Source of the DNA: Dictyostelium discoideum
Lineage: Eukaryota
Assembly: GCA_000004695.1 (NCBI GenBank)
Contig: CM000153.2
Span: 1,120,001-1,184,000, forward strand
Length of the DNA stretch: 64,000 bases
Direction: 5' to 3'
Below are positions 33,703 to 35,501 of the stretch, one piece after another (within the stretch, counting starts at the first letter, position 1; each line of letters opens with the position of its first letter). The notes under the pieces are model-generated. The model was not told where the DNA came from and did not search any database. It was given only the letters and a program-made list of their open reading frames with translations. A program made the translations under genes and the position numbers.

Positions 33703-35501
33703 ATGTCAAATCCATTAAATTCCTCTTTGGCAGAAGAGGAGGAGGGCGAATTTGTGTCACCCTTTGCAAGAAGTGATAATATAAATACCACCACCACCAC
33801 TACAACTACATCAAATACATTATCATACCCAACTGAAGAGAAGCAAGAGGAACAATCATCACCATCATCACAACAACAAGAACAACCAACACAACCACAA
33901 AAACCAAAGAAAAAGAAACCAGCACAACCAAAAACAGATACAGATACATCAACAACTACTGAACCAGTTGCACCACCAGTAGCATCAAAGAAACCGGAAT
34001 GGGTACCTGATAACTCTTCAAATAAATGTGAAATGTGTAGTTCAACCTTTACATTCCTTAATAGAAGTATTTATCTATTTTTACTATAGTACAATTTTTA
34101 AAAAAAATCTAAATTCTAACACTATATAATTTTATTATTATTTTTACAATCAGGACATCATTGTAGAAGATGTGGACATTTATTTTGTGGAGATTGTTGT
34201 TCATTAAATACATCACTACCACAAGAATATGGATATACTGAAAGAGTTAAAGTTTGTTCAAAATGTTTTACAACTACAATTAACGAGAGAGCATTGGAAG
34301 AAACAACCATCACAATGAATATTGGTGGTGTTAGTAAAGAGACTAAAGTTGTTTCAGGTGTTCATAAATTATTATTATGGAGAATGGGTGCACATGACGA
34401 TGGAGAATTTAATAGAGATGTTTTTGATTCATATGAAAATCAACCATCAACCCCAATACCAGTATCAAGAGTGCAAGATCTTTATTTAGATGGAAATGAT
34501 TTAGATGTTCAAGGTTGTACAGGATTTAGAGTTAGAGTTTATAATCCAGCTTTAGAACCAGGTGAAAAACCAACTACCTATCCAATTTTAGTAAGTATTT
34601 AATTTATTTAATTTATAAAAGACAAGTAAAAATTTATAAATATTCTAATTATTAATATTATTATTATTATTAATTGTTATCTAATTAGATGTGGTTCCAT
34701 TCTGGTGGTTTTGTATCAAAATCAATTCAAACTCCATCAGTTGATGGTTTATGTAGATTACTTTCAAATCAATCAGTAAGTTTATCAAAATCATATATTG
34801 TTAATAATTATACATATTAATATGTTTATTTTGTTTTATTTATTTTTTTTTTTAAAAAAAAAAAGAGATGTGTTGTAGTATCAGTTGATTATAGATTAGC
34901 ACCAGAAAATATGTTTCCAGCAGCAGCTTTAGATTGTTTTGCAGCAACTTGTTGGGCAGTAAAGAAAGCAGCAACATTTGATGGTGATCCAACACGTATA
35001 GCAGTAGCAGGTGATAGTGTAGGAGGAAATTTAGCAGCAGCAGTAGCCTTAATGGCAAGAGATAAAGAGACACCAAGATTATGTGGTCAAGTTTTGGTTT
35101 GTCCAATTTTAGATTTAAAGAAAAACGAAGAGAAATATTATACACGTGTTGTACACAACGATGGTTATTTAATGCCGATGAGTTTTTTCAAATGGTTCTC
35201 TAGCAAATATTGCAGAGAGGCAGATATTGAAAATCCTTACGCATCACCTTTAAAGGCTGCCACTTCAACAAAGGCATTATGTGGTTTACCTGTAACTCAT
35301 ATGATCACCGCTGGTTTTGATCCATTTTGTGACGAAGGGGAACTTTATATTAAAAAACTTAGACAATCTGGCGTTAAGGTTTATCATACACGTTATACAA
35401 ACTCACCACATGGATTCTTTGCAATTGGTTTGGATGAATCAAATGAAGCTTTAATGGAAGTTTCAATAATTTTAAAATATATGTTTGGTTCTAAAAAATA
35501 A
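33703..35501 (+). CDS. FYVE zinc finger fused to an HSL/AADAC-family (alpha/beta-hydrolase fold-3) esterase, 4 exons (33703..34066, 34154..34590, 34689..34775, 34866..35501)
   Basis: FYVE: WVPDNSSNKCEMCSSTFTFLNR|RHHCRRCGHLFCGDCCS...KVCSKCF. Esterase: RVRVYNPALEPGEKPTTYPIL|MWFHSGGF (HGGG oxyanion motif), VDYRLAPE, and GDSVGGNLA (the GDSAG nucleophile motif). Donors are GTATTT, GTAAGT, GTAAGT. Confidence 0.8.

Follow-up and report, generated by a model that had tools for sequence, protein, structure and literature searches.

The 64,000-nucleotide stretch of Dictyostelium discoideum DNA analysed here (the window) carries on its forward strand a gene that encodes a FYVE zinc finger followed by an alpha/beta hydrolase of the hormone-sensitive lipase (HSL) family (Table 1). 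The reading frame opens with the ATG at 33703 and closes with the TAA at 35499-35501, which is exactly the interval, and the single gene of four exons, proposed in a preliminary description of this DNA. The spliced coding sequence of 1524 nt gives a 507-residue product that matches exactly the annotated D. discoideum AX4 protein DDB_G0283819 (XP_638888.1, UniProt Q54QI3), and the gene and both of its domains were already in the public annotation. All three introns are bounded by GT..AG and are AT-rich, with GC contents of 9-14% versus 32-38% in the exons. The neighbouring genes encode a homogentisate dioxygenase, a pirin, an FKBP-TPR protein, a kinase and a MutL-like protein and, as these are unrelated eukaryotic genes, an operon-like context was rejected. 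The synteny with homogentisate dioxygenase is also present in D. purpureum.

Table 1 Features of DDB_G0283819, with positions given as those of the window
Feature	Position	Strand	Extent and content
Exon 1	33703..34066	+	Residues 1-121 and first base of codon 122; disordered low-complexity N-terminus (1-95), then FYVE start: W100-x-x-D103, C109-x-x-C112, R121
Intron 1	34067..34153	+	87 nt, GTATTT...ATCAG, phase 1, GC 14%; within codon R122 of RRHHCR
Exon 2	34154..34590	+	Residues 122-267, one continuous ORF; remaining FYVE (RHHCRRCG, C133/C136, K154-V-C156, C159), cap helices (~183-198, ~210-216), first hydrolase beta-strands to ...PIL267
Intron 2	34591..34688	+	98 nt, GTAAGT...TTAG, phase 0, GC 9%
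Exon 3	34689..34775	+	Residues 268-296; oxyanion-hole loop H271-S272-G273-G274 at 34698-34709
Intron 3	34776..34865	+	90 nt, GTAAGT...AAAG, phase 0, GC 10%
Exon 4	34866..35501	+	Residues 297-507 and stop codon; VVSVDYRLAPE; nucleophile elbow G-D-S347-V-G (Ser codon 35016-35018); Asp448 (35319-35321); His478 (35409-35411)
FYVE zinc finger	33997..34275 (span including intron 1)	+	Residues 99-162, Pfam PF01363
Abhydrolase_3 (HSL family / family IV)	34588..35420 (span including introns 2 and 3)	+	Residues 267-481, Pfam PF07859

The FYVE finger and the esterase are parts of one gene. Intron 1 splits the finger at R122 and exon 2 spans both domains, holding six of the eight zinc cysteines together with the cap helices and the first hydrolase strands. 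Hence, there is no separate FYVE exon and no exon that could end the transcripts terminating after such an exon, which the preliminary description had named as evidence that would count against the fusion. The exon 2/3 junction, said there to be spanned by a hydrolase beta-strand, is borne out by the D. purpureum orthologue: its introns 1 and 3 lie where those of DDB_G0283819 do, intron 2 is lacking, and the genomic DNA runs unbroken across the junction point, CCAATTTTAATGTGGTTCCATTCTGGCGG (PILMWFHSGG). Both domains are also found within a single ORF in transcripts (Trinity P0130, Physarum P0398 and MMETSP P0282), in an intronless genomic ORF (L004, P0143) and in the cDNA-like metagenome contigs L002 and L003. 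The idea that adjacent FYVE and esterase genes were misjoined in the gene model draws on one assembly of 'D. cf. discoideum', in which two ORFs appear, P0128 (273 aa, running into intron 2) and P0123 (221 aa, starting inside intron 3). As that split annotation omits exon 3, which encodes the oxyanion loop, it is best ascribed to a gene-caller error. Given that a single ORF in exon 2 holds most of the finger plus the hydrolase N-terminus, that D. purpureum lacks intron 2 and that relatives carry both domains in one uninterrupted ORF, we rejected two separate genes as extremely improbable.

In the Pfam profile search the FYVE finger scored 75.8 bits against a gathering cut-off of 27.8 (E 2.9e-21). 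The solved FYVE domains of endofin, Lst2, Vps27, Hrs and EEA1 match it at 1e-15 to 1e-11, that of endofin being the best (9.6e-16). The eight zinc cysteines are all present as four CxxC pairs (C109/C112, C125/C128, C133/C136 and C156/C159). WxxD and R(R/K)HHCR, two of the signatures by which FYVE domains are defined (PMC3001460), are found as W100-V-P-D103 and R121-R-H-H-C-R126, the latter directly preceded by a hydrophobic F-L. The cysteines and both signatures (the second as RRHHCR) are invariant across the full-length dictyostelid sequences; one dictyostelid model, P0009, lacks the RRHHCR stretch as well as C112 and C125. The third signature is K154-V-C156 in all nine dictyostelid sequences rather than the canonical RVC, which is kept in those sequences of the sister clade described below that cover the finger (P0011, P0130, P0021 and Physarum P0398). 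The FYVE finger reported earlier is sound in its profile score, cysteines and first two signatures and departs from the canonical form, by a conservative substitution, in the third.

The rest of the protein had been described as a fold-3 hydrolase with GDSVGG and C-terminal Asp and His motifs, and the profile search and alignments agree. The Abhydrolase_3 match scored 222.4 bits against a cut-off of 25 (6.9e-66), and the match to Say1_Mug180 only 24 bits. The best solved relative is the esterase Est8 (4ypv, 2.2e-52), and sequence alignments to solved hydrolase structures begin at residues 212-236. The triad residues Ser347, Asp448 and His478 are in place: the nucleophile elbow (GxSxG) is G345-D-S347-V-G349, GDSVG replacing GDSAG (Ala to Val), and in alignments with Est8 and SshEstI, D448 (DPFCDEG) and H478 (PHGFF) fall on the Asp and His motifs of those esterases. 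An HGGG motif had also been claimed, but the sequence reads H271-S272-G273-G274 (HSGG). The place of the first HGGG glycine, residue 272 here, holds Gly in at least 90% of the 124 homologues in the alignment, and every dictyostelid sequence has Ser or Thr there. The oxyanion hole of the family is formed by the backbone nitrogens of the third and fourth HGGG residues (PMC11294565), and both of these glycines, G273 and G274, are kept.

An AlphaFold2 model built on a 124-sequence alignment (pTM 0.82) reached a pLDDT of ~90 or more throughout residues 95-507, including the linker between finger and hydrolase core, and gave residues 170-226 secondary structure with pLDDT of at least 88. This model superseded a run on an 11-sequence alignment (mean pLDDT 62.9) in which the linker was unreliable. 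Foldseek aligned the model with whole family IV esterases over 300-340 columns with TM-scores on target of 0.85-0.91; for Est8 (4ypv) the values were E 4.4e-28, TM-score on target 0.88 and 335 aligned columns. As only 281 residues lie downstream of residue 227, alignments of this length mean that the 'linker' matches the fold's cap, and the whole hydrolase fold, cap included, is predicted to occupy residues ~175 to 507. The cap has a family-specific motif, LLW.MGA.(D/E)G.F(D/N)R, upstream of the point at which alignments with bacterial homologues start.

The fusion is present in each of the nine dictyostelid sequences found (64-80% identity), in a Physarum-type sister clade and in a few other protists. 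The architecture is uncommon, as had been supposed: in a search of 1.84 billion cluster representatives, the family-specific part that precedes the hydrolase core was matched by only about six clusters. It is no new discovery, as a 2010 survey had already tabulated Abhydrolase_3 among FYVE partner domains together with Pkinase, PI3_PI4_kinase, Myotub-related and Lipase_GDSL (PMC2837644). Neighbour-joining of the hydrolase domain gave bootstrap values of 100% for Dictyostelia, 99% for the Physarum-type clade and 100% for a distant protist clade; Dictyostelia and the Physarum-type clade grouped at 100%, and all three clades together at only 43%. In the more distant family members P0143, P0277 and P0282 the finger is degenerate and without RRHHCR. 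The cap motif is shared across the clades (hhalign probability 96%, E 2e-9, with distant-clade segments chosen by motif anchoring), and pairwise BLAST of the linkers between clades gave weak matches (E 3e-4 and 0.17). The shared motif speaks for a possible single origin of the fusion in the three clades.

Taking these features together, we lean somewhat towards DDB_G0283819 being a hydrolase recruited to PI3P membranes. It would be a soluble protein, peripherally attached to membranes, in which a disordered tail of ~95 residues is followed by a canonical FYVE finger whose C-terminal helix is predicted to continue straight into the N-terminal cap helices of a family IV (HSL-type) alpha/beta hydrolase. 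Its action may be pictured as follows: (i) the finger would bind PI3P at the cytosolic surface of early macropinosomes, phagosomes and endosomes, and perhaps of autophagic membranes, (ii) with finger, cap and core predicted to be a single rigid unit, docking would keep the substrate entrance that the cap covers near the membrane, and (iii) Ser347-Asp448-His478, with the G273/G274 oxyanion hole, would cleave an ester there, probably a lipid ester. In Dictyostelium, FYVE-dependent endosomal targeting has been documented for AdcA, as has PI3P on incoming macropinosomes and phagosomes (PMC3001460).

That the finger binds another lipid or a protein partner instead of PI3P, in which case the enzyme would not be endosomal, seems to us improbable, as the closest matches to the finger are proven PI3P binders and both WxxD and RRHHCR are intact and do not vary among full-length dictyostelid sequences. 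The replacement of the RVC Arg by Lys (K154) throughout the dictyostelids could be read in favor of such a partner, but it retains the positive charge. The degenerate fingers of the distant P0143, P0277 and P0282 also point in that direction, as does the frequent weakness of a lone FYVE finger, the FYVE domain of AdcA being required for endosome binding yet not enough by itself (PMC3001460).

The catalytic step meets a weightier rival in the catalytic residues of the relatives. Every one of the nine dictyostelid sequences has the nucleophile Ser, and eight have the His. In D. purpureum, the protein of which is 74-80% identical overall to that of D. discoideum depending on the alignment, the catalytic His has become Asn (PHGFF to TNAFF), as seen in genomic DNA. 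All seven sequences of the sister clade (P0398 from Physarum polycephalum, P0400, P0130, P0011, P0021, P0022 and P0138) have Gly in place of the nucleophile (GDGAGG) and four have Asn in place of His; at the HGGG position five read HTG(H/N/F) and one HSGH, P0138 not reaching the motif. Yet the FYVE finger of this clade is canonical (WxxD, RRHHCR and RVC are kept wherever the sequence covers it) and its hydrolase domain is still ~51% identical to that of dictyostelids. Hydrolysis is thus dispensable in close relatives, and the loss of the Ser beside a canonical finger argues that some of what the family has conserved does not need it. A precedent is the plant gibberellin receptor GID1, which has the HSL-family fold and became non-catalytic after losing its catalytic His (PMC11294565). 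The changes in D. purpureum and the Physarum-type clade parallel that of GID1 (3ebl, 2zsh), and triad loss of the kind that marks GID1-like pseudoenzymes is found in both of them and is absent from D. discoideum; GID1 has no FYVE finger and is moderately similar to DDB_G0283819 (7e-27), which has the full triad.

From these losses, together with the change of the first HGGG Gly to Ser or Thr that dictyostelids have in common with the dead clade, it could be argued that the hydrolase fold is mainly a non-catalytic ligand-binding or scaffold module on PI3P membranes, a pseudoenzyme or a GID1-like protein in transition, the D. discoideum triad being residual or secondary. We regard this as credible but unlikely. 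D. discoideum retains the Ser, the Asp, the His and both oxyanion glycines, and the persistence of Ser and His among dictyostelids over deep divergence fits the expectation under purifying selection on catalysis. A reading that spans the clades is rather doubtful: FYVE plus the HSL fold would be an old, lineage-restricted protist module with a conserved job on PI3P membranes other than hydrolysis, either binding a lipid or small molecule or serving as a scaffold, in the manner of a GID1-like sensor tethered to endosomes or phagosomes, D. discoideum and dictyostelids like it being still catalytic or transitional and D. purpureum and the Physarum-type organisms having already lost catalysis.

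The hydrolase domain of DDB_G0283819 is of bacterial type and has bacterial and archaeal counterparts in the family IV (HSL-like) carboxylesterases Est8 (4ypv), EST2 (1evq), AFEST (1jji) and SshEstI (3wj1), with which it shares the fold and N-terminal cap, 41-45% mean identity in the catalytic domain, DYRLAPE, the GDS.G elbow, the DP..DEG Asp and the HGF His. Unlike these esterases it is eukaryotic, its gene contains introns, and FYVE and a disordered tail lie ahead of the cap; it also has HSGG for HGGG, GDSVG for GDSAG and the family-specific cap motif. Mammalian HSL (8zvq), AADAC/NCEH1 and yeast Say1 belong to the same Pfam family and are much more distant in sequence, as seen in the HSL match (6.8e-24 versus 2e-52 for Est8) and the low Say1_Mug180 score. 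The substrates of these eukaryotic enzymes are membrane- or lipid-droplet-associated esters, and targeting relies on an N-terminal domain and phosphorylation in HSL and on a transmembrane anchor in AADAC/NCEH1, with no phosphoinositide-binding finger. The FYVE effectors EEA1, Hrs/Vps27, endofin, Lst2 and AdcA have the eight Cys, WxxD and RRHHCR in common with DDB_G0283819, which differs in having KVC and in pairing its finger with a hydrolase in place of a coiled coil, a VHS/UIM or an arrestin domain. A FYVE finger places a catalytic domain on PI3P membranes in the lipid kinase PIKfyve/Fab1 and the lipid phosphatases MTMR3/4; unlike those enzyme domains, that of DDB_G0283819 belongs to the carboxylic-ester hydrolases and is not of a phosphoinositide-modifying type.

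Literature searches found no functional study of DDB_G0283819, no characterised member of the FYVE plus Abhydrolase_3 fusion family and nothing relevant on FYVE with Dictyostelium and esterase or on Dictyostelium with HSL and lipid droplets. Neither DDB_G0283819 nor Q54QI3 was mentioned in the main texts of the papers searched. D. discoideum, a professional phagocyte, is a standard model for macropinosome and phagosome pathways, and the proposed activity would be that of a phosphoinositide-recruited ester hydrolase working at the cytosolic surface of young macropinosomes and phagosomes. It would tie PI3P signalling to local lipid-ester turnover, a link for which we found no characterised example. 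As a genome-scan finding this is modest, because gene, domains and architecture were all on record beforehand. The more useful lead comes from the comparison: close relatives have lost catalytic residues beside a still canonical FYVE, so that culturable amoebae offer a natural set of proteins that look active or dead, and the need for catalysis is directly testable.

The N-terminal tail has short conserved segments of its own. AlphaFold2 with the 124-sequence alignment gave pLDDT below 50 at residues 1-14 and 22-85, and the tail motifs EEE.[FY].[SN]PF and LSYPT are conserved across Dictyostelia. None of the F&H, YPxL and gamma-ear sorting signals appears to fit these motifs. The [SN]PF element loosely resembles the NPF motif bound by EH domains.

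The spliced product of window positions 33703-35501 was a 100% match to D. discoideum AX4 DDB_G0283819 (XP_638888.1, EAL65524.1, UniProt Q54QI3). Public annotation already covers the gene, its protein and both Pfam domains, with Q54QI3 named a 'FYVE-type domain-containing protein' and orthologues carrying that name or 'Esterase'. In a comparative survey from 2010, Abhydrolase_3 appears without discussion in a list of catalytic domains accompanying FYVE (PMC2837644), and a literature search on DDB_G0283819 itself found no paper; the FYVE-esterase observation is known as annotation. 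To this we add validation of the exon 2/3 junction through an orthologue lacking that intron, the reading of an apparent linker as esterase cap, the HSGG and KVC variants, and the loss of catalytic residues in a myxogastrid-type sister clade and D. purpureum.

The window, which this match identifies as D. discoideum nuclear DNA, has a GC content of 12-35%, with intergenic poly-A/T tracts and coding homopolymer runs of Asn/Thr/Gln. Three introns (GT..AG; 87, 98 and 90 nt) interrupt the 1524-nt coding sequence (507 aa); their GC content is 9-14%, versus 32-38% for the exons. Intron 1 (phase 1) splits the codon of R122 within the RRHHCR motif, and thus the FYVE finger has no exon of its own. Exon 2 is a single open reading frame that supplies six of the finger's eight zinc cysteines as well as the cap helices and initial strands of the hydrolase. 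The D. purpureum orthologue has introns 1 and 3 at identical positions and lacks intron 2, and homogentisate 1,2-dioxygenase lies upstream of it too. As PILMWFHSGG is uninterrupted in D. purpureum genomic DNA, the exon 2/3 junction is directly validated. The exon structure of the preliminary description, with a hydrolase strand spanning this junction, was correct, as was the placing of FYVE and hydrolase in one gene, the exon 2 frame holding parts of both. We consider it extremely improbable that the fusion is an annotation artefact. In one recent 'D. cf. discoideum' assembly the gene is annotated as two ORFs (P0128 and P0123, 273 and 221 aa) with exon 3 skipped, probably a gene-caller error that could mislead counts of domain architectures.

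Gene structure, neighbouring features and members of the related clades beyond Dictyostelia (window positions unless a contig is named).
Feature	Position	Strand	Group	Description
Exon 1	33703-34066	+	DDB_G0283819	splicing model
Exon 2	34154-34590	+	DDB_G0283819	splicing model
Exon 3	34689-34775	+	DDB_G0283819	splicing model
Exon 4	34866-35501	+	DDB_G0283819	splicing model
Disordered tail	33703-33990		DDB_G0283819	residues 1-95
Microsatellite	33627-33690		neighbourhood	(AAAT)n / (AAAC)
Three upstream genes	28242-32640	-, +, -	neighbourhood	FKBP + TPR protein; pirin; homogentisate 1,2-dioxygenase (two exons)
Protein kinase gene	35677-38428	-	neighbourhood	Ser/Thr kinase
P0398			Physarum-type clade	Physarum polycephalum transcript
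P0130/P0012			Physarum-type clade	Trinity transcript
P0011, P0021, P0022, P0138, P0400			Physarum-type clade	metagenome or metatranscriptome contigs
P0143	L004 6001-7596		distant protist clade	intronless 531-aa ORF; ENA metagenome contig, 335 kb, GC 31%
P0277, P0279			distant protist clade	
P0281			distant protist clade	Tara Oceans catalogue entry
P0282			distant protist clade	MMETSP transcript

The N-terminal FYVE finger of the preliminary description was readily recognized (Pfam FYVE, residues 99-162, 2.9e-21, 75.8 bits), with W100xxD103, R121RHHCR126 and all eight cysteines, the third signature being K154-V-C rather than R-V-C. Its closest solved relatives are the PI3P-binding FYVE domains of endofin, Lst2, Vps27, RUFY1, Hrs and EEA1. 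The closest relatives of the hydrolase (Abhydrolase_3, residues 267-481, 6.9e-66, 222 bits) are family IV (HSL-like) esterases from bacteria and archaea, Est8 first (2.2e-52), then SshEstI, EST2 and AFEST; far more distant are mammalian HSL (6.8e-24) and plant GID1 (7e-27). Ser347 (GDSVG), Asp448 (DPFCDEG) and His478 (PHGFF) are present as described previously, but the reported HGGG is in fact HSGG, with serine in place of the first glycine, a residue that 90% or more of 124 homologues conserve. The HSL-family oxyanion hole is formed by two glycines (PMC11294565), both of which are retained in HSGG. Many bacterial matches of ~650 aa (P0013-P0020 and P0131-P0133 among them) consist of two tandem family IV esterase domains and score above single-domain esterases only through having two copies.

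AlphaFold2 gave a poor model from a shallow alignment and hence a 124-sequence alignment was used instead (mean pLDDT 84.4, pTM 0.82). Residues 1-14 and 22-85 were disordered, and pLDDT was ~90 or higher for residues ~95-507, including 170-226. In Foldseek the model matched whole family IV esterases over 300-340 columns (Est8, E 4.4e-28, TM-score on target 0.88), more than the 281 residues downstream of 227, so what resembles a linker (helices 183-198 and 210-216) is in fact the esterase fold's N-terminal cap. In the predicted model the C-terminal helix of the finger passes directly into this cap. A membrane-docked finger would presumably keep the cap-covered substrate entrance close to the bilayer.

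The full-length search recovered proteins with this architecture, at 64-80% identity, from D. purpureum, Acytostelium subglobosum, Tieghemostelium lacteum, Polysphondylium violaceum, Heterostelium album, Cavenderia fasciculata and other dictyostelid data sets. The description of the architecture as uncommon is borne out, since a profile search of 1.84 billion cluster representatives gave only about six clusters matching the family-specific stretch that precedes the hydrolase core, the thousands of other matches being esterase-only. Additional searches and contig look-ups gave two further clades, a Physarum-type sister clade and a distant protist clade. In the Physarum-type members that extend over the finger (P0011, P0021, P0130 and P0398) the FYVE is canonical, RVC included; for P0021 and P0011 a prokaryote-style gene call had left out the finger, which is encoded by an upstream ORF of the respective contigs (L002 and L003). 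The nucleophile elbow is GDGAGG (Ser to Gly) in all seven sequences, and at the HGGG position five have HTG(H/N/F) and P0400 has HSGH (P0138 lacks coverage). Esterase motifs in the distant clade are for the most part canonical (HGGG or HGGA, GDSAGG, HGF(F/Y)), with the catalytic Asp replaced by Cys in P0277 and P0279. Of the distant-clade fingers only that of P0281 is canonical; those of P0143, P0277 and P0282 are degenerate, and P0279 (334 aa) has none. P0143, from an AT-rich eukaryote contig with adjoining RPS19e, G-patch and PP2C genes, has KKTCKLCG versus RRHHCRRCG, together with HGGA and GDSAGG.

A neighbour-joining tree of the hydrolase domain supported Dictyostelia (100%), the Physarum-type clade (99%), the distant clade (100%) and the first two together (100%), with only 43% for all three. 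A cap motif, LLW.MGA.(D/E)G.F(D/N)R, located upstream of where bacterial homologues start aligning, is common to all three (hhalign 96% probability, E 2e-9, the distant-clade segments having been anchored on the motif itself). From these sequences a single old FYVE-esterase fusion is likely, although not proven.

The preliminary description proposed an endosome- or phagosome-localised hydrolase; its observation was confirmed and its interpretation supported in part. We give somewhat better than even chances to the D. discoideum protein being a PI3P-recruited active esterase. The nucleophile Ser is kept in 9/9 dictyostelid sequences and the His in 8/9, which argues for retained catalysis and against a chiefly non-catalytic role in binding or scaffolding, the reading we rank second and consider possible but clearly less probable. 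That second reading draws on D. purpureum, in which genomic DNA (locus L001, 3001-4778) has TNAFF in place of PHGFF, four consecutive changes (NSTNAFFG versus NSPHGFFA), yet overall identity is 74-80% depending on the alignment. It also draws on the Physarum-type clade, whose members are all catalytically dead by sequence, although the clade is well conserved and its PI3P-type finger is intact. The same His to Asn change occurs in 4/7 sister-clade sequences, the next Gly also being replaced in P0130 and P0400. Such conservation indicates that in close relatives the unit formed by FYVE and the HSL fold serves a selectable role without hydrolysis, the evolutionary route taken by GID1 in plants (PMC11294565). 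It is rather unlikely that the family as a whole comprises endosome-tethered HSL-fold sensors or pseudoenzymes.

Ranked third, and improbable, is targeting of something other than PI3P by the finger. For the first-ranked reading, the Dictyostelium protein AdcA provides a precedent for FYVE-dependent endosomal targeting, and the AdcA work documented PI3P on incoming macropinosomes and phagosomes, while warning that a single FYVE finger may not suffice by itself (PMC3001460).

Two short motifs, possibly linear motifs for interaction, are kept across Dictyostelia amid the low-complexity drift of the disordered tail. In one, [FY]-x-[SN]-P-F comes after an acidic run (EEEEGEFVSPF; NPF in two species), loosely like the NPF motif bound by EH domains, and the other is L-S-Y-P-T, present in two to three copies in Tieghemostelium. 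The microsatellite directly before the start codon lies within a ~1 kb intergenic region that is nearly all A and T. An intron of ~20 nt interrupts the adjoining kinase gene, which encodes a C-terminal tail of ~670 aa with very long homopolymers of Asn, Thr and Gln and, at its end, a short conserved-looking globular segment.
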